DNA of 64,000 nt from Vicinamibacterales bacterium (GCA_965246995.1 OZ252008.1:64993-128992); one strand, 5' to 3'; counted from the first letter of the stretch, positions 1-18,089 are shown. Notes: a model not told the origin generated them from the sequence alone. Made by a program: numbers and translations.

Positions 1-2
1 AC

Positions 3-809
3 CAGAGGCTGGCCGACTGGCGCCGCGAGGCGCCGATCCGGCCGGTCGTCTTCGAAGACGCCGGCGTACTCAGTGACGACACCGTCCACCTGCACCTGGA
101 GCAACGGGTGGCCCAGCGTCTGCTCGCGCGGTTCCGCGCCCAGGGCTTCATCTACCACGACCTGTCACGCGCCTGTCTCGCGCAGGCGAACGACTCGATT
201 CCCCGGGTCGTCCTTCTCGGGCGGCTGTGTCTCTACGGGCGCCGGGCGGAGCGGCTGCACGAGGAGATCGTCCCGCTGGCGGCCCGGTGGATCGAACCGG
301 GGCGGCGGAGCGGTCCGCTCCGGGCCTACGCGCGCGAAGCCGAGACGCGGACGCTCGATCTGCTGAAGCAGTCGCTGACCGGTCGCCTGGACTGGACGCC
401 GCACGACGTCATCCGCGCCCGGCTGCTGGCGACGGCGCCGCGCGACGTCGAGGAACTGCTACCGCAACTCGAGCCGCGGGCCGAGGAGTTGGCCGCGCTG
501 GCGACGCGCAGGCTGCGCGAGCGGGGAGAGCGGGAGGCGCGCGACCTGGACGAAACGCTCCGCCGGCAGCGCGAACGCATCGTCGAGGAGCTCGACCGTC
601 ACGAGGGTCGTTTCGCGCAGATCGCACTGGAATTCGACGAAGAGGAGCGACGGCAGCTTCAGTCGAACATGCGCTACTGGCGCAAGCGCCTCGACCAGTT
701 CGACCGAGACCTGGAGCAGGAGCCGCGCCGGATCCGAGCCTTCTATGAGGTGCAGGCACAGCGGGTCGAGCCGGTCGGCGTGGTGTACCTGTGGCCGGAG
801 ACGAATTGA
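3..809 (+). CDS. 3' fragment of a large helicase-type (defence-associated) protein; 5' end outside window
   Basis: The frame is open from the window edge (QRLADWRREAPIRPVVFEDAG... precedes the first listed Met at 108) to the stop at 807-809. The tail is an Arg/Glu-rich coiled coil (...EEERRQLQSNMRYWRKRLDQFDRDLEQEPRRIRAFYEV...VGVVYLWPETN). No helicase motif lies inside the window, so the family call rests only on its position directly upstream of a giant N6-adenine methyltransferase. Confidence 0.4.
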   Translation, partial: QRLADWRREAPIRPVVFEDAGVLSDDTVHLHLEQRVAQRLLARFRAQGFIYHDLSRACLAQANDSIPRVVLLGRLCLYGRRAERLHEEIVPLAARWIEPGRRSGPLRAYAREAETRTLDLLKQSLTGRLDWTPHDVIRARLLATAPRDVEELLPQLEPRAEELAALATRRLRERGEREARDLDETLRRQRERIVEELDRHEGRFAQIALEFDEEERRQLQSNMRYWRKRLDQFDRDLEQEPRRIRAFYEVQAQRVEPVGVVYLWPETN

Positions 810-855
810 GTGGCCTCACGCCAACGTGTGGCGATCTGTTGCTGATCGGATTACC

Positions 856-1143
856 ATGCATTTCATGAACGGCCTTTCTGTCAAGTTGCCGGAAGAGTTG
901 CATGCGGTGCTCTCCAGGGAAGCGCGGCGCCGCAACGTCAGCCGGTCGTCCCTCGTGCGGGAGCTCATCGCGAACGCGCTGAGCGACAGGGGCGGCGCGC
1001 CGCCACCGAGTTGCGCGGATCTCGCCGGTGACCTGGTCGGCGCCGTTCGCAGCGGACGTTCCGACCTGGCGACGAATACGCGTCTGCTCGACGAGGCTGT
1101 CGTCCAGGACTCCCACCGTGCCGGCGCCGACGGTCATCGTTGA
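856..1143 (+). CDS. vapB: Ribbon-helix-helix (CopG/Arc-type) antitoxin, VapB-like
   Basis: ATG at 856 (alternative at 865). The N-terminal LSVKLPEELHAVLSREARRRNVSRSSLVRELI is a typical RHH beta-strand plus two helices. The gene overlaps the downstream PIN gene by 26 nt, the usual TA operon architecture. Confidence 0.75.
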   Translation: MHFMNGLSVKLPEELHAVLSREARRRNVSRSSLVRELIANALSDRGGAPPPSCADLAGDLVGAVRSGRSDLATNTRLLDEAVVQDSHRAGADGHR

Positions 1144-1543
1144 CACCGGGCCCATCGTTGCGCTGCTCGATGCGGACGAGGCGCACCACGAGTGGGCGCG
1201 CACGCAGTTTGCTGCGCTGGGAGCACCGCTGCTCACTTGCGAAGCCGCGCTCTCGGAGGCGTCGTTTCTGTTGCAACGGGCCGGAGCCGATCAGAGCCTG
1301 CCGGTGACGCTGGTTGGCCGGGGTGTGCTGCGCATCGAGCACCCGATCGCAAGCGAGGCCGATGCGCTGGCCGTCCGGGGATTGATTCGTCGCTACCGTA
1401 GCGTGCCAATGTCGTTTGCCGATGCCTGTCTGGTTCGACTGCTTGAGGGCACCGATAGCGCGTCGATCATGACGCTCGATTCCGATTTCCGCATCTATAG
1501 GCAGGCTGGACGGCGGGTCATTCCCCTGCTCATGCCGACGTAG
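1118..1543 (+). CDS. vapC: PIN-domain toxin, VapC-like
   Basis: GTG at 1118 gives (M)PAPTVIVDTGPIVALLDADE..., carrying the first acidic PIN residue. Later motifs include FADACLVRLL and IMTLDSDFRIY (C-terminal acidic residue). The size (~141 aa) and coupling to an RHH gene fit VapC. Confidence 0.8.
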   Translation: MPAPTVIVDTGPIVALLDADEAHHEWARTQFAALGAPLLTCEAALSEASFLLQRAGADQSLPVTLVGRGVLRIEHPIASEADALAVRGLIRRYRSVPMSFADACLVRLLEGTDSASIMTLDSDFRIYRQAGRRVIPLLMPT

Positions 1544-1546
1544 CCG

Positions 1547-4500
1547 ATGCCGAAGCGCGACCCGCACAGAGACGCTCACCTGGAGTGGATCGGCTTCGTC
1601 CGGCCGACCGGCCTCGTGGTGTCGGCACCGGCCCTGGTCCGCGCCGGGGCGATTCTCCCGCGCGATCCGGAAGGGCAGCGACTGCTGCGCGCCTGCGTCA
1701 CCGAACGGCGTCTCCATCCCGACCGCGAACCGGAGCCGTGGCTGCCGGACTTTCGGGCGTTCGCCTCATCGGTGCTCGGCTGGAACTTCTCGCCGAGGGG
1801 CTACGCGGGGACTGTCGAGTGCCCGATCCCGCCGGAGCTGGAGACGCCACTGCAGGAAGGCGGGGAGGTGCTGCGTCCCGACTTCGCGGTACGCGAGCGC
1901 GACCCCCGGGGAAACGCGTCCGCGTGGCAGCTCATCGTCAAGGTCATCGAGCCCGGCGAGGACTTCGATCGCGTTGCCGGCGGGGCCGGCCGCCTGGAGG
2001 TGTCGGCCCACGGTCGAATGGAACGGCTGCTGCGGCAGACCGGTGTTCCGGCAGGTTTGCTGTGCAACGGCCGCTCACTCCGCCTCGTCTCGGCGCCTCG
2101 CGGCGAAAGCTCCGGCTGGCTCGACGTGCACGTGGCCGACATGGTCACCACGGCGGGCCGGCCGATCGTGGCTGCGCTGCGGCTGCTGCTGAGCCAGACC
2201 CGGCTCCTGAGTCTCCCGCGCGACAAGCGTTTCGCCGCGCTGCTCGCGGACAGCCGGCGCTTCCAGAACGAGGTGAGCGAGCGGCTGGCCGAGCAGGTGC
2301 TGCACGCGCTCTACGAACTACTGCGCGGCATCCAGGCGGCCGACGACACCTCGAAGGGAAAACTGCTGCGCGCGCCGCTGGCCGAGCGGCCCGACGATAT
2401 CTACCACGCGCTGCTCACCGTCATCCTGCGCCTCGTCTTCCTGCTCTACGCGGAGGAGCGGGACCTGCTGCCCGGCGGCGAGACGTTCGCGCGCCACTAC
2501 TCCCTCGCCGGCCTGTACGAGCGCCTGCGCGAGGACGCCGCGCTGCACCCCGACACGCTGAACCAGCGCTACGGCGCCTGGGCGCAGCTTCTCGTGCTGT
2601 TCCGGCTGTTCCACGACGGCGCCGAGGCGGATGGTCTGCACCTGCCCAGACGCCACGGCGCGTTGTTCGACCCCGACCGCTTCCCGTTTCTCGAAGGCCG
2701 GGGCGCCGGGGCGCGCCAGATTCACGAACGGATCGAGCCACCGCTCGTGCCCGACGGCACCATCTACCGCGCGCTCGACAAGCTGCTGGTGCTCGACGGC
2801 GAGCGCATCTCGTACCGCGCCCTCGACGTGGAGCAGATCGGCTCTGTCTACGAGACGATGATGGGCTTCCGGCTCGAGACGGCCCGCGGCCGGTCGGTGG
2901 CGATCAAGGCGCAGAAGAAGCACGGCGCGCCCACAACCGTAAACCTGGAGGCGCTGGCCGCCGAGCCGGGCCACCGCCGGGCGCAGTGGCTGCGGGAGCG
3001 GACCGACCGCGCGCTCACCGACACCGTGCGCAAGCCGGTGGCCGCAGCCCAGGCCGTCGCCGACCTGCACGCGGCGCTGCACCCCGTGATCGACACCGCC
3101 GCCACGCCCGACCTCGTGCCGCCCGGCGCCCTCGTGCTGCAGCCGAGCGAGGCGCGCCGCCGCTCCGGATCCCACTACACACCGCGCGAACTGACCGAGC
3201 CGATCGTCCGCACCACGCTGGAGCCGATCCTCGCCCGCCTGCGCGGACCCGGCGGCAAGCCGCCGAGGCCGGCGGCGATCCTCGACCTGAAGGTCTGCGA
3301 CCCGGCAATGGGCTCCGGGGCCTTCCTGGTGGAAGCGTGCCGCCAGCTCGGCGATGCGCTGATCGAAGCGTGGCGCGCCGCCGGCGACGACGCGGCACCC
3401 GACATTCCGCCCGGCGAGGACGAAGTGATCTTCGCCCGCCGGCTCATCGCCCAGCGCTGCCTCTACGGCGTGGACCGCAACCCGATGGCCGTCGACCTGG
3501 CCAAGGTCTCGCTTTGGCTCGCCACGCTGGCCAAGGAACACGCCCTCACGTTCGTCGATCACGCGCTGCGGCACGGCGATTCGCTCGTCGGGTTGTCGCA
3601 GCGCCAGATCGAGACGTTCCACTGGGACACCACCAGCAAGTACTCCCAGCAGGGGTTCGAGACCATCCCCGTGCGGGAACAGGTCGCCAAGGTGTCCGAG
3701 TTGCGCCGCCAAATCCGTGAGGCCGACGCCAGCGTCCCGGACTGGGATCTGCGCGACTGGTGGGACGAAGCCCGCTTCGAGCTCGACAAGGTGCGTCTGT
3801 TCGGCGACCTGGCAACCGCCGCCTTCTTCGAGGGGAGCAAACCAAAGGAACGCGAAGCCCGGCGCGCAGAGTACGCCGCTGCCGTCATCGAGGGTCAGGC
3901 CGACCAGTTCCGCGCAGAGCTCGACGAGCGCCGCCGCGACGACGCGCCCCTGGCGCCGTTCCACTGGGAGCTGGAGTTCCCGGAGGTGTTTGAACGCAAG
4001 TCATCAGCCGGGAGCGTGAGGAGGAACCCCTCGCAAGAGAAGCCGCCGGGGTTCGATGCGATCGTCGGAAATCCACCGTTTGCGGGCAAGAACTCGGTGG
4101 CCGCTGGAAACGTCGCGAACTACCCCGACTGGTTGAAGGAGATCCACGAGGAAAGCCACGGCAACGCCGATCTCGTCGCCCACTTCTTCCGCCGCGCGTT
4201 CGATCTCGTCCGACATCAAGGCGCGTTCGGCCTCATCGCCACCAACACCATCGCCCAGGGCGACACTCGCGCCAGCGGCCTGCGCTGGATCTGCAAGCAC
4301 GGCGGCGAGATATTTTCCGTCCGCCGCCGGGTCAAATGGCCCGGTCTGGCCGCCGTCGTCGTCAGCGTGCTGCATATCGGAAAGGATGCGGTCATGGACC
4401 GCAAGCAGATCGACGGCCGCGACGTCGAGCGCATCACGGCGTTCCTGTTCCACCGCGGCGGCCACGACGATCCCGTCCGCCTCAAAGCCAACGCGGGCAA

Positions 4501-5167
4501 GAGCTTCCAGGGCAGCATCGTCCTCGGCATGGGCTTCACGTTCGACGACACCGACACGAAGGGTGTCGCCTCGCCGCTGTCCGAGATGCACCGGCTCATC
4601 GAGAAAGACCCACGGAACCAGGAGGTGATCTTCCCCTACATCGGTGGACAGGAGGTAAACACCAGCCCGACGCATGCGCATCACCGGTATGTGATCAACT
4701 TCAGTGACTTTCCGTTGCGGCGGGCGAGTGTCGAAACCGGCGGAGCAGGTGTGCCCGAAGACAGCCGGGTACCGGCCGATGAACTCGTTGAGCCGGTGAC
4801 GTCGTGGGTCGACGCGACGGACGAGCAGCGGCGTGCGTGGCTCCACCAGGGAAGAGTTCCGCTCGACTATCCCCAGCCGGCGGCTGCAGACTGGACGGAC
4901 TTGTTGCCGATTGTGAAAGAACGGGTGCGAGGCACGCGCGGGAGACACTCGACGGCGCCGTGGTGGCAGTTTGAACGCGTTCGCCCCGAACTCTATGCCA
5001 CCATCGGCGGCCTGGAGCGGGTGCTGGTGATTCCCCAGACGTCGAACGTTCAGGCACTAGCCCGGATAATTCGTGAAGGGTCCGATTTCGATAGTGACGC
5101 AAGGACCCCCGTGTGGTACAAATGCTGTGAAGCCAGACATTTACCCACCACAGAGGCCCTTGCGTGA
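1547..5167 (+). CDS. Giant gamma-class N6-adenine DNA methyltransferase (Eco57I/MmeI/PglX/DrmMI-like), native 3' end replaced by IS sequence
   Basis: SAM motif I VCDPAMGSGAFLVEA is followed about 250 aa later by FHWELEFPEVF and catalytic motif IV IVGNPPFAGK; the order I then IV defines the gamma class. The N-terminal block RLVFLLYAEERDLLP is typical of the PglX/MmeI-type group. After roughly 5050-5060 the ORF reads into the left end of an IS1380-type element, so the last ~35 codons are not native. Confidence 0.8.
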   Translation: MPKRDPHRDAHLEWIGFVRPTGLVVSAPALVRAGAILPRDPEGQRLLRACVTERRLHPDREPEPWLPDFRAFASSVLGWNFSPRGYAGTVECPIPPELETPLQEGGEVLRPDFAVRERDPRGNASAWQLIVKVIEPGEDFDRVAGGAGRLEVSAHGRMERLLRQTGVPAGLLCNGRSLRLVSAPRGESSGWLDVHVADMVTTAGRPIVAALRLLLSQTRLLSLPRDKRFAALLADSRRFQNEVSERLAEQVLHALYELLRGIQAADDTSKGKLLRAPLAERPDDIYHALLTVILRLVFLLYAEERDLLPGGETFARHYSLAGLYERLREDAALHPDTLNQRYGAWAQLLVLFRLFHDGAEADGLHLPRRHGALFDPDRFPFLEGRGAGARQIHERIEPPLVPDGTIYRALDKLLVLDGERISYRALDVEQIGSVYETMMGFRLETARGRSVAIKAQKKHGAPTTVNLEALAAEPGHRRAQWLRERTDRALTDTVRKPVAAAQAVADLHAALHPVIDTAATPDLVPPGALVLQPSEARRRSGSHYTPRELTEPIVRTTLEPILARLRGPGGKPPRPAAILDLKVCDPAMGSGAFLVEACRQLGDALIEAWRAAGDDAAPDIPPGEDEVIFARRLIAQRCLYGVDRNPMAVDLAKVSLWLATLAKEHALTFVDHALRHGDSLVGLSQRQIETFHWDTTSKYSQQGFETIPVREQVAKVSELRRQIREADASVPDWDLRDWWDEARFELDKVRLFGDLATAAFFEGSKPKEREARRAEYAAAVIEGQADQFRAELDERRRDDAPLAPFHWELEFPEVFERKSSAGSVRRNPSQEKPPGFDAIVGNPPFAGKNSVAAGNVANYPDWLKEIHEESHGNADLVAHFFRRAFDLVRHQGAFGLIATNTIAQGDTRASGLRWICKHGGEIFSVRRRVKWPGLAAVVVSVLHIGKDAVMDRKQIDGRDVERITAFLFHRGGHDDPVRLKANAGKSFQGSIVLGMGFTFDDTDTKGVASPLSEMHRLIEKDPRNQEVIFPYIGGQEVNTSPTHAHHRYVINFSDFPLRRASVETGGAGVPEDSRVPADELVEPVTSWVDATDEQRRAWLHQGRVPLDYPQPAAADWTDLLPIVKERVRGTRGRHSTAPWWQFERVRPELYATIGGLERVLVIPQTSNVQALARIIREGSDFDSDARTPVWYKCCEARHLPTTEALA

Positions 5168-5922
5168 CGACCGACAAGATATCACAGACTGTCCTCTTTC
5201 CGGATCTCTTCGACAAGCCCCTCGTCGCGACGTTCGACCGCCAGCACGCGAGTTCCGATGGCGGCGCGGTTCTGCTCAAGGCGGCCGAGCGGCTGTACGG
5301 GTTGGTGGCGGGCTTTGCCCGCTGTCTGGTCGACCGGCGGGAGCCCGGGAAGGTTCGGCACACGTTGGCGGAGTTGCTCGGCCAGCGGATCTTCGGCATT
5401 GCGTGTGGCCATCCGGATGGTAACGACGCCGACCGCCTCGCCGACGATCCGATCCACAAGCTGTTGCTCGGGCGCGACCCGGTCGCTGGCGAGGCGTTGG
5501 CCTCGCAGCCGACGATCTCTCGGTTCGAGAACGGCGTCGGCCGGTCTGCCCTCTACGAGCTGGCGCGCGAGCTGGCGATGCGGGTCATCGAGCGGCATCA
5601 GCGCCGGCTGGACGGGCGGGCGCGGCGGATCACGATCGACCTGGATCCCACCGACGACGCGACGCACGGCGCCCAGCAGCTCACCTTCTTCAACGGGCAC
5701 TACGATAGCTGGTGCTACCTGCCGTTGCTGGCGTTTCTGACCTTCGACCAGGAACGCGAACAGTATCTGTGCGCGGCGGTGCTGCGGCCCGGAAATGTGT
5801 CGGCCACCCGCGGGACCGTGGGCGTGTTGTGTCGGCTGCTGCCCCTGCTGCGGCAGGCCTTTCCCCAGGCGCGGTTTCTCGTCCGGCTCGACGGGGGCTT
5901 TGCGACGCCGGAGATCTTGAGC
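5061..5922 (+). mobile_element. IS1380-family IS fragment (left end plus N-terminal ~250 codons of the DDE transposase); right half missing
   Basis: The transposase starts at 5164: MTTDKISQTVLFPDLFDKPLVATFD...SSDGGAVLL...ITIDLDPTDDATHGAQQLTFFNGHYDSWCYLPLL...VRLDGGFATPEIL, a pattern I recognise as IS1380 family. Both the similarity and the high GC stop abruptly near 5920. The left boundary (~5061, cccggataattcgtgaagggtcc) is approximate. Confidence 0.7.
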
Positions 5923-7770
5923 ATTGCGGCCAGGGTAGCTTCGGAACTGAAAGCGAACGAATTTTGGAAAAAAAACGGCTTCGACATTATACGCCGCACG
6001 CCCGGTGGAGCCACAGGGCGGACGATAAATCACTACACGCTCCATCTTGACGTTCCGTCACTCCTCCCCGGTGGCCAACGTCACATTACTTCACCCCTCG
6101 ACGATGCCGAACAAATCCGCTACAGCCGTCCGCTGTTACCAACGCTCTCCTACGTACTTGATCTGAACGTCTTCTTCGACATCGTGAGAAGCCGTGATGT
6201 TGGAGAATCTGCTCATCTTTTATCGCTCGCTCTAGACAATGAAATACGTCTCTCTACTACTTCGGAATTTGCCAAGGAACTGGAACGGCATTCACGCGAT
6301 CTGCAAAACGACCCTGTCTTGGCGTTCGCAAGACGTTTACCGACACTACCGGAGTTGCGACCGGAAATCCTGACCCCGCTGACCGATGAGTTGAGAAAGT
6401 TGCTTGCGCCGGGACAGCCCAAAACAGGAAAACGGGCGGCAAATGATGCCTCAGATCTGATCCATCTTGCGTCCTGCATTCATCACAAGGCATATGGCTT
6501 TGTCACTCGTGATGGTGCAATTCTTCAACGCGCTACGGCGCTACGTTTACAATATGGCCTTAGAATTATCTCGCCGGTGGACCTCACGAATTCCTTCAAT
6601 GACACAGACAGCCATTACGAATCGCGGTCGGCGACCGTTGAGCACGAAGATATCGAGGTTGCGACTCTTAATGAACAATCTCGAGCGGACGTTGAACGAT
6701 TCCTGGACAACCTGGGAGTCGAATCAAATCGCATGTCCTCGTGTCTTGAGCCGGGGTCAATGCGTCGACCTAGGTCACGAGTCGTGGTGCAAACCAAGCA
6801 GCAGATAATCGGAATCTGTTCCTGGACAGCCATACGCCCTTCCGGCCGCGAAACCACGTTGCATCTGTATGTTGATGAGGATCATCCTAATTCTGAAAGG
6901 GCTATCGATTGTCTTTTGGAGTCTTCGATGGCCATTGGCTGTCACGGTCAGCTGTATCGACTTCACTTGAAGATTAGTCCGAGACAAACGAAAACCCGCG
7001 AAGTCGCTATCCAGAGAGGCTTTCGGCCTTCGGACCCAAGAGATGGGATGTCTTCCAACACCTTAAGCAAGATGTCACTGAGAGGAATCATTACAACCGG
7101 CGACTGGCCGCGGTTCAGGAGCGAATTTAGAGAAACAACCGGTTTGATGCTTCAGGATAGCATGCCACGACATACCACATCGTCTGATGCACGCATTACA
7201 CTGACCTCGGTGGAACATCATAGTTCACGTACTATTTCTCTATTTGATTTCGAAACCTTGATAGCACCTGGCGCTTTGCTTTACCTCAATCGATCCGCAG
7301 TAATGGTACCCATCAGAGAAGAATACGCGAATGGACTGCTTCCGGCAACCGGAAGTCAACCATCGTTTCTTCCTGGTTCGGAAGCGGTTCTGCGCCTGGA
7401 GCGAGCCTATTTTTGGGCTGCCGGCAAGCATGCATTAGTGCAGAGAGGAATGATCGTTGTGTTCTATGTCAGTCGCCGACGGCGGGAAGCTGTGGCGCTG
7501 GCCAGAGTAACATTCTCTGACTCTCTAACTAAAACTCAGGCTGTAATGAACCTGGGCCGGCAGGGTGTGCTGACTGAACAAGAAATACACCAGAGAGCCA
7601 ATAACAGAAATGAAGTCGCGGCGTTCACCTTTGACAATCTTCTGGTATTTCGCGAAAAGATCGCTTTTCGAGAACTTAAGCGAATGGGCTGCATCGGAGG
7701 AGCTAATCTGGTTACAGCACAACCGCTGACTCACGAATCTATGCTTAAAATCGTGAAACGAGCGTTCTGA
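5923..7770 (+). CDS. Low-GC multidomain ORF: (GNAT C-terminal remnant)-PIN-like-degenerate GNAT-like-ASCH-like; 5' end lost or fused in frame to the IS1380 fragment
   Basis: This is the same frame as ORF 5164..7770, but composition drops sharply at ~5920. The first residues ...ANEFWKKNGFDIIRRT look like the end of a GNAT fold. The PIN-like region (~6151-6590) reads LSYVLDLNVFFDIV...NDASDLIHLASCIHHKAYGFVTRDGAIL. The GNAT-like region (~6650-7040) reads IEVATLNE...IIGICSW...LHLYVDEDHPNSERAIDCLLE...EVAIQRGFRP and lacks the usual R/QxxGxG/A loop. The C-terminal ~160 aa align block by block with the ASCH protein encoded next. No in-frame ATG or GTG precedes the PIN block. Confidence 0.5.
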   Translation: MAARVASELKANEFWKKNGFDIIRRTPGGATGRTINHYTLHLDVPSLLPGGQRHITSPLDDAEQIRYSRPLLPTLSYVLDLNVFFDIVRSRDVGESAHLLSLALDNEIRLSTTSEFAKELERHSRDLQNDPVLAFARRLPTLPELRPEILTPLTDELRKLLAPGQPKTGKRAANDASDLIHLASCIHHKAYGFVTRDGAILQRATALRLQYGLRIISPVDLTNSFNDTDSHYESRSATVEHEDIEVATLNEQSRADVERFLDNLGVESNRMSSCLEPGSMRRPRSRVVVQTKQQIIGICSWTAIRPSGRETTLHLYVDEDHPNSERAIDCLLESSMAIGCHGQLYRLHLKISPRQTKTREVAIQRGFRPSDPRDGMSSNTLSKMSLRGIITTGDWPRFRSEFRETTGLMLQDSMPRHTTSSDARITLTSVEHHSSRTISLFDFETLIAPGALLYLNRSAVMVPIREEYANGLLPATGSQPSFLPGSEAVLRLERAYFWAAGKHALVQRGMIVVFYVSRRRREAVALARVTFSDSLTKTQAVMNLGRQGVLTEQEIHQRANNRNEVAAFTFDNLLVFREKIAFRELKRMGCIGGANLVTAQPLTHESMLKIVKRAF

Positions 7771-7783
7771 ATTTGGAAAACTG

Positions 7784-8248
7784 ATGAATCAAGCGATCAT
7801 TTCACTCAAACCGCAGTACGTAGAGCTGGTCCTATCGGGACAAAAATCCGTAGAGCTGCGCAACAGGATCGTGAGGTTGGAACCTGGTTCCCGCGTATGG
7901 ATATACGCGACAAAACCGGTGGGCGGTATTGTAGCGATGGCAGACGTCGAGTCGGTCGTTCATGCCAAGCCGGCGGCAATCTGGCGGCGTTACGGAAAGG
8001 AAATATGTATCAACAAGGATTGTTTCGATTCCTACATCGGAAATAGGGATTGTGCGACGGCTATGTTATTGACGTCTGTGAGAAAACTACATAAATTCCT
8101 GACATTAGACGGTATACGCCGTGCGGTGGGCTCCTTTCATCCACCACAGTTCTACACACGGCTTTCGTCGGACGGCTTGTTGATTGGGGCCTTGAATAGA
8201 AGCATGAGCATCGGAAAAGATGTTGATATTGGCGACGATGGAAATTGA
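7784..8248 (+). CDS. ASCH (ASC-1 homology, PUA-like fold) domain protein
   Basis: MNQAIISLKPQYVELVLSGQKSVELRNRIVRLEPGSRVWIYATKPVGGIVAMADVESV... is the characteristic ASCH N-terminal pattern (I..kP.y...I.sG.K..E.R). It has the same low-GC composition as the upstream ORF and starts 13 nt after that ORF's stop. Confidence 0.75.
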   Translation: MNQAIISLKPQYVELVLSGQKSVELRNRIVRLEPGSRVWIYATKPVGGIVAMADVESVVHAKPAAIWRRYGKEICINKDCFDSYIGNRDCATAMLLTSVRKLHKFLTLDGIRRAVGSFHPPQFYTRLSSDGLLIGALNRSMSIGKDVDIGDDGN

Positions 8249-8440
8249 CGACGCATGCGGATGCATGAAATAGGTAGTGCTGTGGGCGCATGCGCAGCCG
8301 CAAGCAACATTGCAGGTCGCGGATCGGACCGAATGTTGGCCGCTGGCCTGGGGTGCTGGCGGGGCCCGCGACGCAGGCCCGCCCGCTCCGCGCCGGCAAT
8401 CCTGCCGCAACTACTACTCGATCTGCACTCACTACCGGTC

Positions 8441-9411
8441 TAGTGTCCCGTGCGCGAAGTACTTCGACCACACAGCGAATCCTGGTACCGTCTGATGCAT
8501 GCAGACGACCAAGGACTTCCAATTGTGCCCGGATGACCGGGACACCTTGAAACGGTGGCTGCGACGGCCGACGACGCCGAGTGGTCAGACGCGGCGAGCG
8601 CGCATCCTACTCTCGCTCGACGGGGCCGCGGTGCCCGGGAAACCGCCAGGATCCTGCACATCAGGCGGGCGACCGTGCACCTCAGGCACGGTCGCTACAG
8701 CACCGAGGGGGTCGCCGGATTGGTGGATCGCCCGCGGTTGGGGCGACCTACCGTCCTGGACCGGCGAACCGCCGAGCGCATCCTGCTGCTGACCACCAAG
8801 CGGGTTCCCGTCGATGCAACCCATTGGAGCACGCGGCTGATGGCGCGCTACGCCGGCGTCACGCAGTGGCAGGTGCGGCAGGTCTGGCAGGCCGCCGACC
8901 GTCAAACCCCATCGGCTCAAGACCTTCAAGCTCAGTCGGGACCCGCAGTTCGCCGAGAAGGTCATCGACGTCGTCGGGCTCTACCTGCACCCACCCGACA
9001 ACGCGCTGGTGTTCTCGGTCGACGAGAAGACGCAGATCCAGGCCCTCCACCGGACCCATCCCATGCTCCCGCTGCGGCCCGGTCAGGTCGCGGCCCGCAC
9101 GCAGGACTACAAGCGGCACGGGACCACGAATCTGCATGCGGCCTTCAATGTCGCGACCGGGGAGGTGCTCGGCCGGACCACCCGGCGCCATCGCGCCACC
9201 GAGTTCCGCCAGTTCCTCGCGCAGATCCAACGCGCGAGGCGCCCGACTTGCCGCTGCACCTGATCGCCGACAACAGCAGCACGCACACGACCGAAGCGAT
9301 TCGCGACTTCCTGGCCGCCCATCCCCGCTTTCACCTGGACTTCACGCCGACCAGCGCGTCCTGGCTCAATGCGGTCGAGACCTGGTTCGGCCAGTTGGAG
9401 CGGCGCGCCCT
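8441..9411 (+). mobile_element. IS630-family element, transposase inactivated by at least 3 frameshifts and 3'-truncated by another IS
   Basis: The left end is TA + gtgtcccgtgcgcg at 8441, resembling the gtgtc... ends of the intact IS630 copy at 16872. Transposase pieces lie in alternating frames from 8499: LCPDDRDTLKRWLRRP...; then GLVDRPRLGRPTVL...THWSTRLMA; then KTFKLSRDPQFAEKVIDVVGLYLHPPDNALVFSVDEKTQIQAL...YKRHGTTNLHAA; then LIADNSSTHTTEAIRDFL...TPTSASWLNAVETWFGQLERRAL. The sequence ends at the IS5-type insertion. Confidence 0.8.
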
Positions 9412-10886
9412 TAGCAGCCCGTGGTGAAAGTCCCGAATAGGGATCGACAAGACCGATCCCGCGTACTACACTTCTGCCCATGGCAATGGGCAAACGCCGC
9501 CGCCGCGTGCGGCAGCCGTCGATGTGGGTGGCCAGCGCCGACCTGCCACGAGGCGGAGGCCACCCGTTCTATGAACGCTTGAATCGTGTTCTCGACGAGG
9601 CGGGTTTCGACGCCTTCGTCGAGAGGGCGTGCGCGAAGTTCTACGCCGACGGGGTGGGCCGGCCGAGTCTGGCGCCGGGCCGCTACTTCCGGCTGCTGCT
9701 GCTCGGCTACTTCGAGGGCCTGGATTCGGAACGGGCGATCGCGTGGCGGGCCGCCGACTCGTTGAGCCTGCGGCAGTTCCTGGACATCGCGCTGCACGAG
9801 GCGTCGCCGGACCATTCGACGGTATCGCGCACGCGGCGGCGGGTGGACCTGGAGACGCACCGGGCAGTCTTCACGTGGGTGCTCGAGCGGCTGGCCGACG
9901 CCGGCCTGGTCCGCGGCAAGACGGTGGGCATCGATGCGACGACGCTGGAAGCCAACGCCGCGTTGCGGAGCATCGTCCGCCGGGACACGGGCGAGGGCTA
10001 CGAGACGTTCCTGCACGGGCTGGCCGAGGCGTCCGGCATCCCGACGCCGACGCGCGCGGAGCTGGCCCGCTTCGACCGCAAGCGCCCGAAGAAGGGGTCC
10101 AACGACGATTGGACGCATCCGCAGGACCCGGACGCGAAGATCACCCGCATGAAGGACGGCCGCACCCACCTGGCGCACAAGGCCGAGCACGTGGTGGACC
10201 TGGAGACCACCGCGGTTCTCGGCGTCACCGTGCAGGATGCCGACGCCGGCGACACGAAGACGATGGTCGAGACGTTGATTACCGCGGCCGAGCAGGTCGA
10301 AGCGGTCCTGCCGGCCGGGGCCGGCCTCACCGAGGTGGTCGGCGACAAGGGCTATCACAGCAACGACACCCTGGTTGCGTTGGCCGCGTTGGGAATCCGC
10401 AGCTACGTGTCGGAGCCGGATCGCGGTCGGCGCAACTGGCGCGACAAGCCCGACGCCCGCGCGGCCGTCTACGCCAACCGGCGACGCATTCGGGGCGCCC
10501 GCGGGAAGCGCCTGCTGCGCCAGCGGGGCGAACGGCTCGAGCGTCCTCACGCCCACCTCTACGAAACCGGGCGATTGCGCCGCGTGCATCTGCGCGGACA
10601 TGCCAACGTGCTCAAGCGTCTGCTGGTGCACGTCTGCGGCTCGAATCTGGGCCTCCTGATGCGCGAACTGACCGGCGTCGGGACCCCGCGCAGCCTCCAG
10701 GGCCGCGCCAGGGCACTCCTTGACGCCCTGATCCGGGCTCTCAGCCGCCGCTGGCGCCCCGTAGCGCCTTCCGGAGCGGCTCGTCCGTTTGACCCGCGCG
10801 ATTCGCCGTGGATTGCTCACGCCACGCATCGTCAACAACTCGTTCCGCTCACGCTACAAAGAAGCCGTTCTGCCACGGGCTGCTAG
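9412..10886 (+). mobile_element. IS5-superfamily (IS1182-like) insertion sequence
   Basis: A 13-bp terminal inverted repeat, tagcagcccgtgg (9412-9424) and ccacgggctgcta (10873-10885), brackets a single transposase gene whose stop codon lies inside the right repeat. The element is inserted into the 3' part of the IS630 transposase. Confidence 0.75.
9480..10886 (+). CDS. IS5/IS1182-type DDE transposase
   Basis: 468 aa: ...GGHPFYERLNRVLDEAGFDAFVE...GRPSLAPGRYFRLLLLGYFEGLDSERAIAWRAADSLSLRQFL...GIDATTLEANAALRSIVRR...VVGDKGYHSNDTLVALAALGIRSYVSEP...LERPHAHLYETGRLRRVHLRGHANVLKRLLVHVCGSNLG. These are typical N-terminal transposase and DDE blocks of this family. Confidence 0.85.
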   Translation: MAMGKRRRRVRQPSMWVASADLPRGGGHPFYERLNRVLDEAGFDAFVERACAKFYADGVGRPSLAPGRYFRLLLLGYFEGLDSERAIAWRAADSLSLRQFLDIALHEASPDHSTVSRTRRRVDLETHRAVFTWVLERLADAGLVRGKTVGIDATTLEANAALRSIVRRDTGEGYETFLHGLAEASGIPTPTRAELARFDRKRPKKGSNDDWTHPQDPDAKITRMKDGRTHLAHKAEHVVDLETTAVLGVTVQDADAGDTKTMVETLITAAEQVEAVLPAGAGLTEVVGDKGYHSNDTLVALAALGIRSYVSEPDRGRRNWRDKPDARAAVYANRRRIRGARGKRLLRQRGERLERPHAHLYETGRLRRVHLRGHANVLKRLLVHVCGSNLGLLMRELTGVGTPRSLQGRARALLDALIRALSRRWRPVAPSGAARPFDPRDSPWIAHATHRQQLVPLTLQRSRSATGC

Positions 10887-12115: not shown

Positions 12116-13081
12116 ATGCCACTGGAAGTCGGAGTCATCGAGACCGTGCCGATCCGCGATGTCTGGCCGAGGGAGGATGCCGACTTTACACCTTGGCTTC
12201 AGTCGCACATCGGCGAGCTTGACCAGGCCCTCGGACTCGGATTGACCAACCCTCAGAGGGAGGTCGGAGCCGGTGACTTCAGCATCGACCTGGTGGCGGA
12301 GACCAACTTCGGCGATGTCGTCATCGAGAACCAGTTCGGACGGAGCGACCACCGCCACCTCGGCCAGTTGGTGACCTATCTCTCGCACCGGGACGTTCAA
12401 CGGGCGATCTGGATCGTTGAGGACGGGAGGCCGGAACACGTCAAGGCCGTGGAGACCCTTAATGAACGCGGCGTCGGGCAGATCTGGATGATCACGGTGC
12501 GACCTGTCCGGATCGGCGATTCCGCGCCGGCCCCGCTGTTCACGGTCGTCGCCGAGCCGTCCGACATCGAGAAACCCGTCGGGCCGATGGAACTCACGCC
12601 GATCCAGATCAAGAAGCGTGACTTCATGGCCGCTCTATTCACGCAAGCGCGGGATGAAGGGATCGACTCGCCGTTCAGGAATCTCAAGCCGGACTACATT
12701 GGGCTGCAGGACACACCTGCCAGAGGGTCGGGGCTGGTGTACCGCGTTGCGATTAACCGCCACGAGGCCCGGGTCGTCCTCACCAACAAGCGGGGCCGAT
12801 GGACGGGCGCGCTGGCCGTGTTGCTTGAGAACCGACAGAAGATCGACGCGGCCTTCGCGGAGGGCGACCTGCCGGAGCGCCTCAAATGGTCGGAGGAGGT
12901 GACCGCGGGCCGCTGGGTGATTCGCTACGGGGTAGACGTCAACTACCGGAACGAGCCCGACATGGCCAAGATGCTCGAACTCAATCGGGCTTCCGCCGAG
13001 ATGAAGCGCGTCTTTGCCCCGCACCTCGAGCAACTCGATCCAGAGCTTGAAGAGGACACGTCGGAGCCATCGGCCGACTGA
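12116..13081 (+). CDS. PD-(D/E)xK-like nuclease-fold protein with DUF4268-like C-terminal domain
   Basis: PIRDVWPREDADFTPWLQSHIGELDQALGLGL...GDFSIDLVAE...VVIENQFGRSDHRHLGQLVTYLS...IWIVEDGRPEHVKAVETLN is a pattern I recognise from restriction-endonuclease-like proteins (D...E-x-Q variant). The start is uncertain: the ORF opens at GTG 12041, and ATG 12116 was chosen by analogy with family N-termini. Confidence 0.5.
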   Translation: MPLEVGVIETVPIRDVWPREDADFTPWLQSHIGELDQALGLGLTNPQREVGAGDFSIDLVAETNFGDVVIENQFGRSDHRHLGQLVTYLSHRDVQRAIWIVEDGRPEHVKAVETLNERGVGQIWMITVRPVRIGDSAPAPLFTVVAEPSDIEKPVGPMELTPIQIKKRDFMAALFTQARDEGIDSPFRNLKPDYIGLQDTPARGSGLVYRVAINRHEARVVLTNKRGRWTGALAVLLENRQKIDAAFAEGDLPERLKWSEEVTAGRWVIRYGVDVNYRNEPDMAKMLELNRASAEMKRVFAPHLEQLDPELEEDTSEPSAD

Positions 13082-13109
13082 CGGTCGTGGCGACGAACGA
13101 GGTGGCCAG

Positions 13110-14585
13110 ATGTTCATGGGTCAGTCGCAAGACGAGCTCCGCTGGCAGCCACGCGCTCGTGCTCCGCGTCTCGTCTGGCTCTGCGTCCTGTGCGCGGCGG
13201 CCACCCTCGCACTGGCCCAGCCCGCCGCCGACCGGGAATGGTTGCCCGGCGATTCGCACATCCACAGCCACTGGAGCACCGGCTACGACTACCGAACCGT
13301 CCCGCCGACCCCCATCAAGGGACGGGATGCCCTCTACTCGACGCCGCGCAACGCCGCGATGGCGCGGCGGTTCGGCCTGCGCTGGATGGTGACGACCGAT
13401 CACGGCGGCCCCGCCCACTCCAAGGTGAATCTGGAGCAGGCCTACCGCGAACTGACCCTGTCGCGCGAACTCGTTCCCGAGGTGCTGCAGTTCTACGGGA
13501 TGGAACTCAACATGCCGGGCATGGACCACCACACGCTGATCATCCCCCGCGCCGAGGACGAGGCTTCGGTGCTGAACGAGATCGAAAGCCGATTCGACGC
13601 CAACGAGGACTGGGCTCGGCCCCGCGACCCGCGCCGGCAGTCGGCGGGGCTCAGACAACAGGCGCTGGCGCACATGCAGGAGCTGGACAGGCTGCCGATC
13701 CTGTTTGCAAACCATCCCTCCCGGTCGGCGGAAGCAATCGGGGTCTACGGTCGCGACGAACCGTGGGAGCTCCGGGAAAACAACGACATCGCGCCGGACG
13801 TGTACCGTGGGATGGAAGGCGCGCCCGGCCACCAGGCCGCCGCCCTCAACGAGAACGGCAGCGGGCACCGCGGCGCCTACCGGAACCCCGGGGCCCAGAC
13901 CCTGGGCGGCTTCGACCAGATGACGGCCATCGTCGGCGGCCTGTGGGACGCCCTCCTCGGCGAGGGGCGCCGATTCTGGATCGTCGCCTCGTCCGACTCG
14001 CACTTCCACTACGCCGAGCCGGTCCGGGCCGGAAGCGATTTCTGGCCCGGCGAGTTCCACAAGACCTGGGTCCACGCGCGCCCGACCTACGCCGACGTGC
14101 TCGACGGCCTGCGGCGCGGCCGTATGTTCGCGGTGGCGGGGGACCTGGTGACCGAGCTCGAGGTCAGCCTGGCGAGCGGCCGGCACGAGGCCGGGCTCGG
14201 TGGCACGCTGCGTGTCGCGCCGGGGACGCGGGTCACGGCGACCGTCCGGTTACGGGATCCGGAGACCGCGAATGCGGCGGGCGAGAACCCTGCCGTCCGG
14301 CGGGTCGATGTGATAGTGGGCGAGGTGCAGGGACCTGCCTCCGATCCGGCGAACGATCGCAACCCGACGACGCGCGTCTTCGCCCGCTTCACGCGCGACG
14401 CGCTGGACCGTGACGGAGACCGCTACACCGTCGAGGCAGTGCTGCCCGCGGTGGACCGCGACCTCTACGTCCGGGTGCGCGGGACGAGCACCGACGACCT
14501 CGAGCCTCCGATGGACGGCCCCGAGGAGAACCCCTGGCACGATCTCTGGTTCTACTCGAACCCGATCTTCGTCGAGGTCGAGTGA
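13110..14585 (+). CDS. Secreted PHP-domain metal-dependent phosphoesterase (CehA/McbA-like)
   Basis: ATG at 13110 gives a signal peptide (LVWLCVLCAAATLALAQP), then GDSHIHSHWS (PHP HxH motif), MVTTDHGG and SSDSHFHY. The 13014 start in the ORF track would overlap the preceding gene. Confidence 0.65.
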   Translation: MFMGQSQDELRWQPRARAPRLVWLCVLCAAATLALAQPAADREWLPGDSHIHSHWSTGYDYRTVPPTPIKGRDALYSTPRNAAMARRFGLRWMVTTDHGGPAHSKVNLEQAYRELTLSRELVPEVLQFYGMELNMPGMDHHTLIIPRAEDEASVLNEIESRFDANEDWARPRDPRRQSAGLRQQALAHMQELDRLPILFANHPSRSAEAIGVYGRDEPWELRENNDIAPDVYRGMEGAPGHQAAALNENGSGHRGAYRNPGAQTLGGFDQMTAIVGGLWDALLGEGRRFWIVASSDSHFHYAEPVRAGSDFWPGEFHKTWVHARPTYADVLDGLRRGRMFAVAGDLVTELEVSLASGRHEAGLGGTLRVAPGTRVTATVRLRDPETANAAGENPAVRRVDVIVGEVQGPASDPANDRNPTTRVFARFTRDALDRDGDRYTVEAVLPAVDRDLYVRVRGTSTDDLEPPMDGPEENPWHDLWFYSNPIFVEVE

Positions 14586-18057: not shown

Positions 18058-18089
18058 GAAACATGCGACATATCACGTGTGACGTGACA

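Follow-up and report, generated by a model that had tools for sequence, protein, structure and literature searches.

Multidomain proteins that combine a PIN domain, a GNAT fold and a C-terminal PUA-superfamily domain in one chain were described by Bell et al. (2020, BMC Biol; PMC7641849, section 10) as (PIN)-GNAT-EVE proteins. Nearly every operon of this class also encodes a separate ASCH protein, the operons often adjoin restriction-modification (R-M) systems, and a toxin-antitoxin (TA) or defence role has been predicted for them; according to the same authors, none of these modules was characterised, and HTH-ASCH fusions were reported for other lineages only. In the account given by Bell et al. 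(PMC7641849), credit for the class goes to Iyer et al. (2013, NAR 41:7635). We found no experimental test of such a module in the literature searched. A further relative is PADLOC PDC-M11, a two-gene unit that is itself a candidate system only and whose name occurs once, in a single paper, in that literature.

The DNA analyzed here, a 64-kb stretch from a Vicinamibacterales bacterium that we call the window, carries a two-gene cassette that, judged by its domains, belongs to the computationally described (PIN)-GNAT-EVE plus ASCH class and is related to PDC-M11. The preliminary description, made from the window alone, had presented it as a system that could not be named; modules of this kind were already in Bell et al. 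(PMC7641849), crediting Iyer et al. The long gene is referred to below as A and the small ASCH gene as B. We are highly confident of the identity, anatomy and truncation of the module, taken alone. The features of the locus are as follows:

3..809, + strand: 3' end of drmD (SNF2-family helicase of class-1 DISARM), running off the window start
865..1143, + strand: ribbon-helix-helix (RHH) antitoxin-like gene, forming a vapBC-like pair with the next gene (L002 2253-2531; Pfam RHH_1)
1118..1543, + strand: VapC-like small PIN gene, located between drmD and drmMI (L002 2506-2931; Pfam PIN)
1547..5060, + strand: truncated drmMI (MmeI-family N6-adenine methyltransferase of DISARM; PADLOC DrmMI, Pfam)
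5061..5915, + strand: fragment of an IS1380-family element, comprising its left end and ~250 codons from the 5' part of the transposase gene (Pfam DDE_Tnp_1_4, NCBIfam IS1380)
5916..7770, + strand: truncated A, codons 105-721 of a 721-aa GNAT-PIN-GNAT-like-ASCH-like protein, fused to the transposase fragment
5917..6099, + strand: remnant of the N-terminal canonical GNAT of A, last ~60 aa, with the motif R83-x-x-G86-x-G88 deleted
6151..6513, + strand: PIN nuclease domain of A, aa 183-303 of the intact protein (Pfam PIN_3)
6607..7194, + strand: middle GNAT-fold domain of A with a non-canonical CoA loop, aa 335-530 (AF2, Foldseek)
7195..7767, + strand: C-terminal ASCH-like (PUA-superfamily) domain of A, aa 531-721 (hhalign, Foldseek, PADLOC)
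7784..8248, + strand: B, intact gene for a stand-alone 154-aa ASCH protein that carries the octapeptide GxKxxExR (Pfam, PADLOC, ZmASCH profile)
8499..9427, + strand: split or frameshifted IS630-type transposase gene (ORF 8555-9427 matches Pfam HTH_32 and DDE_3)
9480..10886, + strand: DUF772/DDE_Tnp_1 (IS5-like) transposase gene (Pfam DUF772 1.4e-16, DDE_Tnp_1 3.4e-7)

The cassette is hosted by class-1 DISARM (drmD, drmMI, drmA, drmB, drmC; E 1e-38 to 0 for DrmD and DrmMI) and is not among the described components of that system. The drmD piece matched the last 227 HMM positions of PADLOC DrmD (E 1.9e-38) and was 82% identical to the DrmD of locus L073 over window positions 3-806 (tblastn), and drmMI matched PADLOC DrmMI with E=0 and 1066 bits, as well as Pfam Eco57I, MmeI_Mtase and N6_Mtase. 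The operon order in this lineage is drmD, vapBC-like pair, drmMI, A and B, and the RHH/PIN pair is also present in L073 and L074. Intact drmMI encodes 1369 aa in the sister contig L002; the window copy is missing its last 596 bp, and its ORF continues into the IS up to position 5167. No match to the L074 DrmA was obtained in the 64-kb window (tblastn, E<=1e-10); ten related loci have DrmA, 3-10 kb downstream of the cassette. DISARM is thus incomplete in the window, since drmMI is truncated and drmA absent.

ORF 5164-7770 is an in-frame fusion, the first 251 codons of which are an IS1380 transposase fragment. The long-gene product of the window is 100% identical to protein P0001 over 611 aa, and homologues on near-identical metagenome contigs supplied the intact 5' end that the preliminary description had asked for, namely a 721-aa gene bearing an extra canonical N-terminal GNAT domain; in L002 the intact pair occupies 7054-9697. 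Both the transposase fusion and this further GNAT of the true protein had been overlooked in that description. Comparison with L002 by blastn placed the breakpoints at 5060/5061 and 5915/5916: window 1-5060 is 99.9% identical to L002 1389-6448, the cassette DNA is 99.97% identical to L002 7365-10551, and between them the IS1380 fragment stands in for 916 bp of the ancestral locus. The 916-bp deletion took the 3' end of drmMI and, from A, codons 1-104 with the acetyl-CoA motif. An IS1380 insertion followed by an adjacent 916-bp deletion would have truncated both genes. Because the deletion removed the acetyl-CoA motif of A and drmA is absent, A is very probably non-functional in the window and the locus a decaying defence island; the truncated copy is unlikely to act as the intact, working system first imagined.

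The same junctions could have arisen in assembly, with an IS1380 copy mis-joined to the cassette and no real deletion allele. The near-identical relatives are metagenome contigs, IS copies are classic sites of mis-assembly, and a related IS1380 lies a few kb off in L003. However, L002 runs collinear with the window on either side of the junctions (99.9% identity), and the IS fragment substitutes exactly 916 bp in the same orientation, which fits insertion and then adjacent deletion. Moreover, the fragment is 92.5% identical to the IS copy in L003 and is therefore not simply that copy mis-joined. We consider such an artefact very unlikely and retain the deletion allele.

The abrupt drop and recovery in composition that had been noticed by eye was borne out: G+C falls from ~0.68 to ~0.50 over 5916-8248, with 0.48-0.53 in windows 6001-8200 versus 0.62-0.76 outside, and GC3 is 0.55 for the ASCH gene and 0.49 for the long gene versus 0.87 for drmMI and the IS fragment. 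The left border of the AT-rich segment lies exactly at 5916, the blastn breakpoint, and on the right the segment ends with the stop codon of the ASCH gene (8248). IS elements do flank both sides as described, IS1380 on the left (transposase gene start at 5164; DDE_Tnp_1_4 1.9e-64, profile positions 4-237 of 435; NCBIfam IS1380 2e-56) and the IS630-type and DUF772/DDE_Tnp_1 elements on the right; the IS630-type element is also found in L001-L003. A role of the flanking IS elements in bringing the segment in did not survive the comparison with L002, in which the cassette begins 10 nt after drmMI with no IS on its left; the left IS fragment of the window records a later insertion plus deletion that cut both genes.

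Read from the N terminus, the 721 aa of intact A comprise a canonical GNAT, the PIN domain, a second domain of GNAT fold whose CoA loop is degenerate and, last, an ASCH-like domain of the PUA type, four domains in all. All three folds proposed from the window (PIN, GNAT-like and ASCH/PUA-like) were supported by profile or structure searches conducted region by region. The N-terminal GNAT is covered by Pfam Acetyltransf_1/7 at aa 45-127 of intact P0001, where motif A (R/Q-x-x-G-x-G/A) reads R83-S-S-G86-M-G88. Neither R83 nor G86 varies in A6, the N-domain alignment; in alignment A1 (59 sequences) R83 is likewise invariant and G86 is conserved in at least 90%. The window copy, which lost aa 1-104, has no motif A. 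The profile of this domain retrieved GNAT matches from the PDB, including the GNAT domain of TmcA (2zpa, 1.6e-5). The PIN-like block is a PIN domain, matching Pfam PIN_3 above the cut-off (E 2.9e-6, 28.5 bits versus 27); its metal-binding acidic residues D186 (VLDLN), E221/E225 and D284 (SDLIHLA) are invariant in 59 homologues, and D303 (TRD) is conserved in at least 90%. It stands N-terminal to the middle GNAT-fold domain (aa 335-530) in one protein.

For the middle domain, the AF2 model (pLDDT 85) gave 191 PDB matches in Foldseek at E<=1e-3, and the best 50 of the 191 were all GNAT acetyltransferases; its sequence match to the GNAT 2eui was weak (E 0.053). E425, G472 and F473 are invariant in the 59-sequence alignment. 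The reading of this region as GNAT-shaped without the usual pyrophosphate loop was correct: DEDHPNSERAID occupies the position of the R/QxxGxG/A loop, and this stretch, D-E-D-H-P-N-S-E-R-A-I-D with the glycine-free family consensus LYVDEDHxxSxxAID, contains no R/Q-x-x-G-x-G/A. The middle GNAT may be inactive. The best candidate for an active acetyltransferase is not this degenerate domain; it is the canonical N-terminal GNAT, which was hidden from the preliminary description.

The C-terminal ~190 aa of A matched the profile of the ASCH partner in hhalign with a probability of 96.3% (E 1.8e-9, 111 columns), in the same blocks that had been aligned by eye, whereas four control domain pairs all had probabilities below 1% (E 0.24-0.75 for three, 0.061 for one). 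The AF2 model of this region (pLDDT 77) was most similar to the Zymomonas ASCH structure 5guq (E 3e-8, target TM 0.74-0.81), ahead of the EVE structures 2gbs (1.3e-4) and 1zce (2.2e-3); the DNA binders McrB-N with m5C DNA and TRIP4 ASCH with dsDNA also scored. Searches of the domain for Pfam EVE or ASCH and for PDB sequence matches gave none. The suspected ASCH/PUA-like fold and paralogy with the next gene are thus upheld by hhalign and Foldseek, and B is by sequence comparison a paralogue of the last domain of A. The C-terminal domain has no ASCH catalytic octapeptide in the hhalign alignment, so any role assigned to it is a guess.

The 154-aa B is a single ASCH domain (Pfam ASCH, E 1.1e-5, 26.5 bits versus a cut-off of 21.2), with no DNA-binding domain found by Pfam; in this it differs from type II antitoxins that carry an autoregulatory HTH, RHH or AbrB domain. 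Its family profile matched ZmASCH (ZMO0922 of Zymomonas mobilis; 5gus/5guq) with E 1.6e-34 over positions 2-131 of 133. Across 33 sequences, the octapeptide G19-Q-K21-S-V-E24-L-R26 has an invariant K21 and R26, with G19 and E24 conserved in at least 90%. ZmASCH is 33% identical to the window B and shares with it GxKxxExR, the WIYAT tyrosine (Zm Y47, here Y41) and the PPQ motif (Zm Q127, here Q122), whereas Zm K53 and S128 are not conserved (G47 and F123 in B). It has no A-type gene beside it, and its upstream 375-aa neighbour is unrelated. ZmASCH binds ssDNA and ssRNA and cuts ssRNA in vitro (PMC5615036); the ssRNA endonuclease and the tRNA ac4C removal are reported in vitro for ZmASCH and may extend to the B family.

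The search for the two-gene cassette in other genomes, as proposed in the preliminary description, showed the pair to be conserved: B lies directly 3' of the long gene in 65/65 loci, from many phyla, that extend beyond the end of A (the remaining 4 of 69 are cut by a contig end or match without the 3' part). The stop and start codons of A and B overlap in 49/64 loci (median -4 nt), and P0212 is a single A-B fusion protein. On this evidence A and B form an obligate unit that is predicted to be translationally coupled.

One reading of the pair is a writer/eraser TA system, in which the N-terminal GNAT would acetylate tRNA, the PIN domain would degrade RNA and B would deacetylate as the antidote; the acetyl target could be cytidine N4 or, in the TacT/AtaT-type manner, the aminoacyl moiety. 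B retains the octapeptide G19-x-K21-x-x-E24-x-R26, whose K and E are reportedly indispensable when GKER-type ASCH proteins deacetylate ac4C in tRNA (bioRxiv 10.64898/2026.02.27.708502), and in the same study ZmASCH removed ac4C in vitro from the tRNA of E. coli. The tight operon with its stop/start overlap, the conserved motif A and the match, among generic GNATs, of the N-terminal profile to the ac4C writer TmcA point the same way. However, the TmcA match spans the generic CoA motif only; ZmASCH showed no activity on free ac4C and caused no decrease of ac4C in vivo (bioRxiv 10.64898/2026.02.27.708502), its reported RNase activity could confound the in vitro tRNA result, and it does not adjoin an A-type gene. 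There is also no sign that A is toxic, and the A-B fusion P0212 would be odd for a labile antitoxin. This pairing of activities is unlikely on balance.

Compared with the class of Bell et al., the family analyzed here has an extra canonical GNAT before the PIN domain (four domains, ~720 aa), and its PUA-adjacent GNAT fold is without the CoA-loop glycines. Its C terminus scores better against ASCH (ZmASCH 3e-8) than against EVE structures (1e-4 to 2e-3), its R-M partners are mainly DISARM DrmMI/MmeI-type and not type I, and neither an AAA_17 ATPase nor an HTH-ASCH fusion was encountered. PDC-M11 corresponds to the module as a two-gene unit, matched by B over its full length (PDC-M11B, PDLC04425: E 1.5e-25, residues 3-128, profile positions 2-123 of 132) and by A through its C-terminal domain (PDC-M11A, PDLC04421: E 2.2e-16, residues 531-699, profile positions 296-464 of 486). 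The PDC-M11A models have 376-501 positions, of which the last ~170 align to A; the N-terminal two thirds, of the model and of A alike, find no match, which is also so in other family members, and the PIN domain and both GNATs are uncovered. The four-domain architecture and the embedding in DISARM look new against the searchable papers; Iyer et al. (2013) may show the architecture.

Among the relatives, ~22/66 genome loci have an MmeI-family/DrmMI gene a short distance upstream and in the same orientation, with a 4-8 nt overlap in several, and DrmD lies upstream in ~17. Type IIG R-M is another context of the cassette, and type I hsdRMS precedes it in L076; the hsdM, hsdR and hsdS of L076 used as probes were found at two further loci only. 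About two thirds of the genome loci have no MmeI/DrmMI gene within 10 kb, and the nearest neighbours of these loci (n=141) are heterogeneous and often housekeeping, with few defence ATPases, integrases or HNH genes. Phage records yielded no copy, and a full-length homologue occurs in one plasmid record only. The cassette is patchily distributed over unrelated phyla, and in 52/65 loci it is richer in AT than the DNA on either side. L001 combines a broken drmMI with an intact cassette, which argues against a strict need of the cassette for the methyltransferase. The occurrence in DISARM, MmeI-type and type I R-M operons, together with the PDC-M11 matches, agrees with the original assignment of a foreign-composition two-gene module of defence or TA type.

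The pair might instead serve housekeeping RNA turnover or RNA modification, its R-M neighbourhoods being incidental. Many loci do sit amid metabolic or housekeeping genes (for example, L075), and YqfB and ZmASCH have been discussed as RNA-metabolism factors (PMC5615036, PMC6972931). The patchy, island-like distribution over unrelated phyla, the AT-richness relative to flanks, the repeated insertion, with reading frames that overlap, into operons of DISARM, MmeI-type and type I systems, the IS-mediated decay in the window and the matches to PADLOC candidate-defence models argue against a housekeeping function, which we regard as highly improbable.

The association with methyltransferases also bears on the possibility that the GNAT puts an acetyl mark on a DNA base, to be flipped out or read by the PUA-like domains. 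Such a mark could be a second self mark beside that of the N6-adenine methyltransferase, or a tag on foreign DNA. The cassette is tightly tied to DNA methyltransferase genes (DrmMI, MmeI-type, type I HsdM), and the PUA-like matches of the C-terminal model include the DNA binders McrB-N and TRIP4 ASCH. Against this, most loci are without an adjoining methyltransferase, and we know of no established bacterial DNA acetylation mark. Base acetylation by GNAT-EVE proteins was proposed by Iyer et al. (2013), as cited in section 10 of Bell et al. (PMC7641849), who raise the same objection that applies here, namely that a PIN domain with an invariant active site speaks for RNA. DNA base acetylation has only a small chance of being the function.

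For the family, we consider it most likely that A is an effector with RNase and acetyltransferase activities that senses modification, and that the ASCH protein regulates it. The two PUA-like domains would bind RNA or DNA and possibly read a base modification, the PIN domain would cut RNA, and the N-terminal GNAT would acetylate a nucleic-acid or aminoacyl-tRNA target; together, the latter two could shut down translation in the infected cell. The small ASCH protein would restrain or tune A, much as an antitoxin or regulator does. The domain folds, the conservation of catalytic motifs, the obligate pairing, the operon contexts and the truncation are shown by the sequence and model comparisons above; every biochemical activity and the defence role we infer from domain identity and gene neighbourhood, and this specific mechanism, taken alone, is tentative. 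The PrrC anticodon nuclease sits in the type Ic EcoprrI R-M locus. It offers a works-like analogy only, as an RNA-targeting effector gene within an R-M operon, and is compatible with a back-up, abortive-infection role; PrrC is ABC-ATPase-like with its own nuclease domain and has no sequence or fold relation to A, and nothing indicates that A is held latent by, or senses, adjacent R-M proteins. The statement as a whole, that the module would be an accessory or back-up effector of methylation-based defence that is damaged here, we hold to be reasonably probable. The segment in the window is a broken copy of a widespread two-gene module that often lies within restriction-type phage-defence operons.

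The long gene, read in the window as part of an open reading frame (ORF) at 5164-7770, and the ASCH gene that follows it (together, the cassette) lie between insertion sequences (IS), as the preliminary description had noted.

Features of the window in and around the cassette
Left of the cassette: IS1380-family fragment (Pfam DDE_Tnp_1_4, 1.9e-64, profile positions 4-237 of 435; NCBIfam IS1380, 2e-56)
7784-8248: 154-aa stand-alone ASCH protein, the partner (Pfam ASCH, E 1.1e-5, above cut-off)
8499-9427: IS630-type gene, split, right of the cassette
9480-10886: DUF772/DDE_Tnp_1 transposase (IS5-like), right of the cassette

The first ~250 residues of the 868-aa ORF are an IS1380 transposase. 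The remaining 611 aa, used as a query, retrieved more than 160 homologues, nearly all of 700 to 745 aa, including a 721-aa protein (P0001, whose numbering is used below) that is 100% identical across the query and is encoded by three metagenome contigs near-identical to the window (L001, L002, and L003). The intact 5' end, which the preliminary description had suggested recovering from homologues, was thereby obtained. In blastn comparisons, window positions 1-5060 corresponded to L002 1389-6448 (99.9%) and positions 5916-9102 to L002 7365-10551 (99.97%). Between these two matches, L002 has 916 bp that cover the terminal 596 bp of the upstream gene, a spacer of 10 nt, and the initial 311 bp of the 721-aa gene; in their place the window has 855 bp of IS1380 sequence, 92.5% identical to an IS copy in L003. 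The in-frame join (5164-7770) links transposase residues 1-251 to residues 105-721 of the long protein. In the simplest history, an IS would first have inserted in the upstream gene, and a deletion starting within that IS would then have extended into the 721-aa gene. An assembly mis-join is highly improbable as the origin of this ORF, because both flanks are collinear, which favors a real deletion allele. The copy in the window is thus apparently truncated and should be annotated as a pseudogene or fusion; the intact reference gene pair is found at L002 7054-9697. With its PIN, GNAT-like, and ASCH-like domains intact, the chimera may be expressible from the IS promoter.

The intact long protein comprises four domains.

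Domains of the 721-aa protein
aa ~1-165: canonical GNAT (Pfam Acetyltransf_1/7 at aa 45-127)
aa 183-303: PIN (Pfam PIN_3, above cut-off)
aa 335-530: GNAT fold with a degenerate loop (AF2 and Foldseek)
aa 531-721: ASCH-like domain (hhalign, AF2, and Foldseek)

The profile of the N-terminal GNAT domain matched GNAT structures in the PDB. Its motif A, R83-S-S-G86-M-G88, is absent from the window copy; R83 and G86 were invariant in the alignment of this domain, and in a 59-sequence alignment R83 was invariant and G86 at least 90% conserved. The PIN profile gave nothing meaningful against the PDB, so that the assignment of this domain rests on Pfam and on its acidic residues, with D186, E221/E225, and D284 invariant and D303 at least 90% conserved among the 59 sequences. 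The middle domain had no Pfam match. Its AF2 model (pLDDT 85) produced 191 PDB matches at E<=1e-3, the best 50 listed being all GNAT acetyltransferases, and a weak sequence match to the GNAT protein 2eui agrees with this fold. The CoA loop of the middle domain is devoid of glycines (consensus LYVDEDHxxSxxAID), and E425, G472, and F473 are invariant in the 59 sequences. Recent duplication of the two GNAT folds was rejected, as no similarity was found between them (hhalign E 0.29).

The sequence profile of the C-terminal domain found no PDB match even at E<=10, and hence its fold was recognized only through AF2 and Foldseek. The model (pLDDT 77) was most similar to the Zymomonas mobilis ASCH protein ZmASCH (5guq; E 3e-8, target TM 0.74-0.81), followed by weaker matches to EVE proteins, McrB N-domains, TRIP4 ASCH, and YTH domains. 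Alignment of the domain with the partner family by hhalign (96.3% probability, E 1.8e-9, 111 columns; control domain pairs negative) recovered exactly the blocks that the preliminary description had paired by eye in proposing a parallel between this region and the next gene. Its three fold assignments, namely PIN, GNAT-shaped, and ASCH/PUA-like, were likewise all correct, as judged by Pfam PIN_3, the Foldseek GNAT matches, and the hhalign and Foldseek ASCH matches, respectively. The C-terminal domain lacks the ASCH octapeptide in the alignment. This octapeptide is conserved in the partner (G19-x-K21-x-x-E24-x-R26), together with S7, Y41, W67, Y84, and an F-x-P-P-Q motif. Candidate catalytic residues are R83/G86, D186/E221/D284/D303, and E425 in the long protein and K21/E24/R26 in the partner.

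The partner family profile matched crystallized ZmASCH end to end (E 1.6e-34), and the partner in the window is 33% identical to it, which ties the partner to known biochemistry, namely a reported ssRNA nuclease and possible N4-acetylcytidine deacetylase. ZmASCH binds single-stranded DNA and RNA in vitro and has Mg-dependent cleavage activity on ssRNA (PMC5615036). Nineteen ASCH proteins are reported to remove N4-acetylcytidine from tRNA in vitro, and in the same study ZmASCH was inactive on the free nucleoside and in vivo (2026 preprint, 10.64898/2026.02.27.708502). An origin of ZmASCH from the same kind of operon was rejected. The gene just upstream of ZmASCH (ZMO0922) in the Z. mobilis locus (L078, 6825-7952) has a 375-aa product for which neither Pfam nor PADLOC gave a match, and hhalign matched it to neither domain profile. 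No gene for the long protein adjoins ZmASCH, which is a relative of the partner rather than a member of such an operon. The 375-aa protein may be an unrecognized alternative partner of the ASCH family.

Scanning one genome per species identified 66 loci in Acidobacteriota, Gamma-, Alpha-, and Deltaproteobacteria-type lineages, Latescibacterota, Spirochaetia, NC10, and others. In 65 of 69 loci the long gene is followed directly by the ASCH gene; the other four have a match without the 3' part or end shortly past the match. The stop codon of the first gene and the start codon of the second overlap in 49 of the 64 loci compared (median -4 nt). The pairing is obligate and translationally coupled. 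One 863-aa representative, P0212, combines the long protein and the partner in one chain, with a match to the PADLOC-DB model PDC-M11B at residues 720-850. This may be a genuine fusion, in which case it would support physical contact between the two, or an artefact caused by a frameshift where the stop and start codons overlap. The C-terminal domain profile retrieved 806 representatives of 50%-identity clusters at E<=1e-3, and among the 150 listed most were ~700-775 aa long and ended with this domain. A shorter PIN-GNAT-ASCH architecture, considered for matches of ~470 aa, was rejected for this family, as those inspected begin within the PIN domain and are thus truncated N-terminally. No homologue was found in phage records. 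The plasmid collection contained one full-length homologue, from Caulobacter, whose annotation is simply 'GNAT family N-acetyltransferase', and a second record with a partial match (43%).

The preliminary description could not name such a system and suggested a toxin-antitoxin (TA) or defense module. This interpretation is supported in part. The folds and the paralogy were right; the copy is truncated, and the system can in fact be named and had already been predicted. Bell et al. (2020; PMC7641849, section 10) described '(PIN)-GNAT-EVE' fusion proteins, crediting Iyer et al. (2013) with an earlier description of the class. Nearly all of their operons include a gene for another PUA-like protein, ASCH, and the fusion proteins are often encoded beside type I restriction-modification (R-M) and other defense systems; no such module had been characterized, and a TA or defense role was predicted. 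In PADLOC-DB, the B model of candidate PDC-M11 matches the partner over its full length (1.5e-25), whereas the match of the PDC-M11A models (376-501 positions) to the long protein is confined to its C-terminal domain (2.2e-16). In the literature searched, the name PDC-M11 occurs in a single paper, and there only once, and no experimental work on (PIN)-GNAT-PUA + ASCH modules was found. As both the Bell et al. class and PDC-M11 already describe such pairs, the cassette is a member of a known, computationally predicted kind. Unlike the published class, its long protein has an additional canonical GNAT domain N-terminal to PIN, an inner GNAT domain with a degenerate CoA loop, and a C-terminal domain closer to ASCH than to EVE, and the cassette is embedded in DISARM and MmeI-type operons. 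The four-domain variant and the DISARM embedding are modestly new. The architecture is provisionally undescribed, on a comparison that covers Bell et al. and PADLOC-DB.

Repeated insertion of the cassette in methyltransferase-based defense operons was observed. An MmeI-family gene lies upstream on the same strand in approximately 22 of the 66 loci, and in several its stop overlaps the start of the long gene by 4-8 nt. In the window this gene encodes the DISARM methyltransferase DrmMI (PADLOC E=0), preceded by a vapBC-like RHH-PIN pair and, before that, the 3' end of drmD. DrmD is upstream in ~17 loci, and DrmA is encoded 3-10 kb downstream of the cassette in 10. Given these neighbors, the cassette in the window's clade lies inside class-1 DISARM, between drmMI and drmA. 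The window contains no drmA and its drmMI is truncated, and the island is therefore decaying. In other contexts, the cassette follows a 940-aa type IIG R-M enzyme or a type I hsdR-M-S operon; type I R-M as a general partner was rejected, since probes from one such locus (L076) found only two further loci. In loci without R-M genes, neither Pfam and PADLOC scans of the 141 nearest neighbors nor all-against-all clustering of flanking ORFs revealed a conserved third gene, both giving scattered families; the neighbors were mixed, with housekeeping genes and a few defense ATPases, integrases, and HNH genes. Neither a tRNA or tmRNA gene nor an Rfam match exceeding the gathering score was found in the 64-kb window, which therefore has no tRNA integration site or known RNA element.

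Other modules share these loci. The RHH-PIN pair (window 865-1143 and 1118-1543), also present in L002 and in two related DISARM loci (L073 and L074), is conserved between drmD and drmMI and adds another small module to the DISARM operon. The order in L074 is drmD, the vapBC-like pair, drmMI, the cassette, and drmA. In L074, a PDC-M02 A/B pair, consisting of a DUF4365 protein and a 380-aa protein, and a HEC-01A ATPase gene lie between the cassette and drmA (12739-14375 and 17918-19129). The drmMI-drmA interval appears to be a hotspot for accessory defense modules. In L001 (4977-9991), drmMI is broken by frameshifts into several ORFs (~96% DNA identity), and both cassette proteins remain 100% intact; hence the cassette can apparently outlive the neighboring methyltransferase.

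The abrupt drop in G+C noted in the preliminary description is confirmed and sharp, at 0.48-0.53 inside 6001-8200 and 0.62-0.76 on either side (400-bp windows). GC3 is 0.49 in the long gene and 0.55 in the ASCH gene, and 0.87 in drmMI, the IS fragment, and the downstream transposase gene. In 52 of 65 loci the cassette has a lower G+C content than the flanking DNA (median difference -10.6 G+C points), even where it occupies the same slot beside drmMI and the two have diverged together (DrmMI 52-84% and long protein 46-67% identical to the reference). This persistence suggests a maintained property or repeated cassette replacement, rather than a single recent transfer. The AT-rich signature, the patchy distribution, and the defense contexts all make a housekeeping role extremely unlikely. 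The IS elements were rejected as the acquisition vehicle by comparison with L002. The right-hand IS630-type and IS5-like elements (window 8440-10886; L003 4352-9471) are arranged differently among sister contigs, with a full IS1380 inserted between them in L003, which indicates active IS turnover at the locus.

We propose that the long protein is an RNA-directed effector that would combine cleavage by PIN with GNAT acetylation of nucleic acid or aminoacyl-tRNA. The PUA-like domains would target or gate it by binding nucleic acid, possibly modified, and the small ASCH protein would regulate or antagonize it. The module may serve as an accessory or back-up defense layer or as an addiction module stabilizing the island. 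Acetylation of DNA bases, a proposal that Bell et al. credit to Iyer et al. (2013), is a very unlikely activity, since the PIN site is invariant and many loci have no methyltransferase. A strict writer/eraser TA pair would accord with the reports of ASCH deacetylases, but the ZmASCH data are mixed, and we consider it doubtful. A further and unlikely reading is an acetylation-based writer/eraser immune switch attached to methylation-based defense. The N-terminal GNAT would acetylate tRNA or other nucleic acid, arresting translation once the adjoining DISARM, MmeI, or type I system has been compromised; RNA marked in this way would be degraded by the PIN domain; and the small GKER-type ASCH protein, as a dedicated deacetylase, would hold the switch inactive in healthy cells. 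This would then be the first physiological role of ASCH 'erasers' in bacterial immunity, and selection to silence a toxic gene could underlie the persistent AT-richness.

For the window itself the message is more modest, that of a decaying defense island. At the level of the family, (PIN)-GNAT-PUA + ASCH modules are widespread and repeatedly wired into restriction-type operons, and the class is an open experimental target for which the present analysis supplies an intact pair, a domain map, and natural contexts inside complete DISARM operons. If the cassette is a back-up effector of DISARM or MmeI systems, it would be one more case of layered immunity encoded in a single operon and would assign a physiological role to bacterial ASCH proteins.
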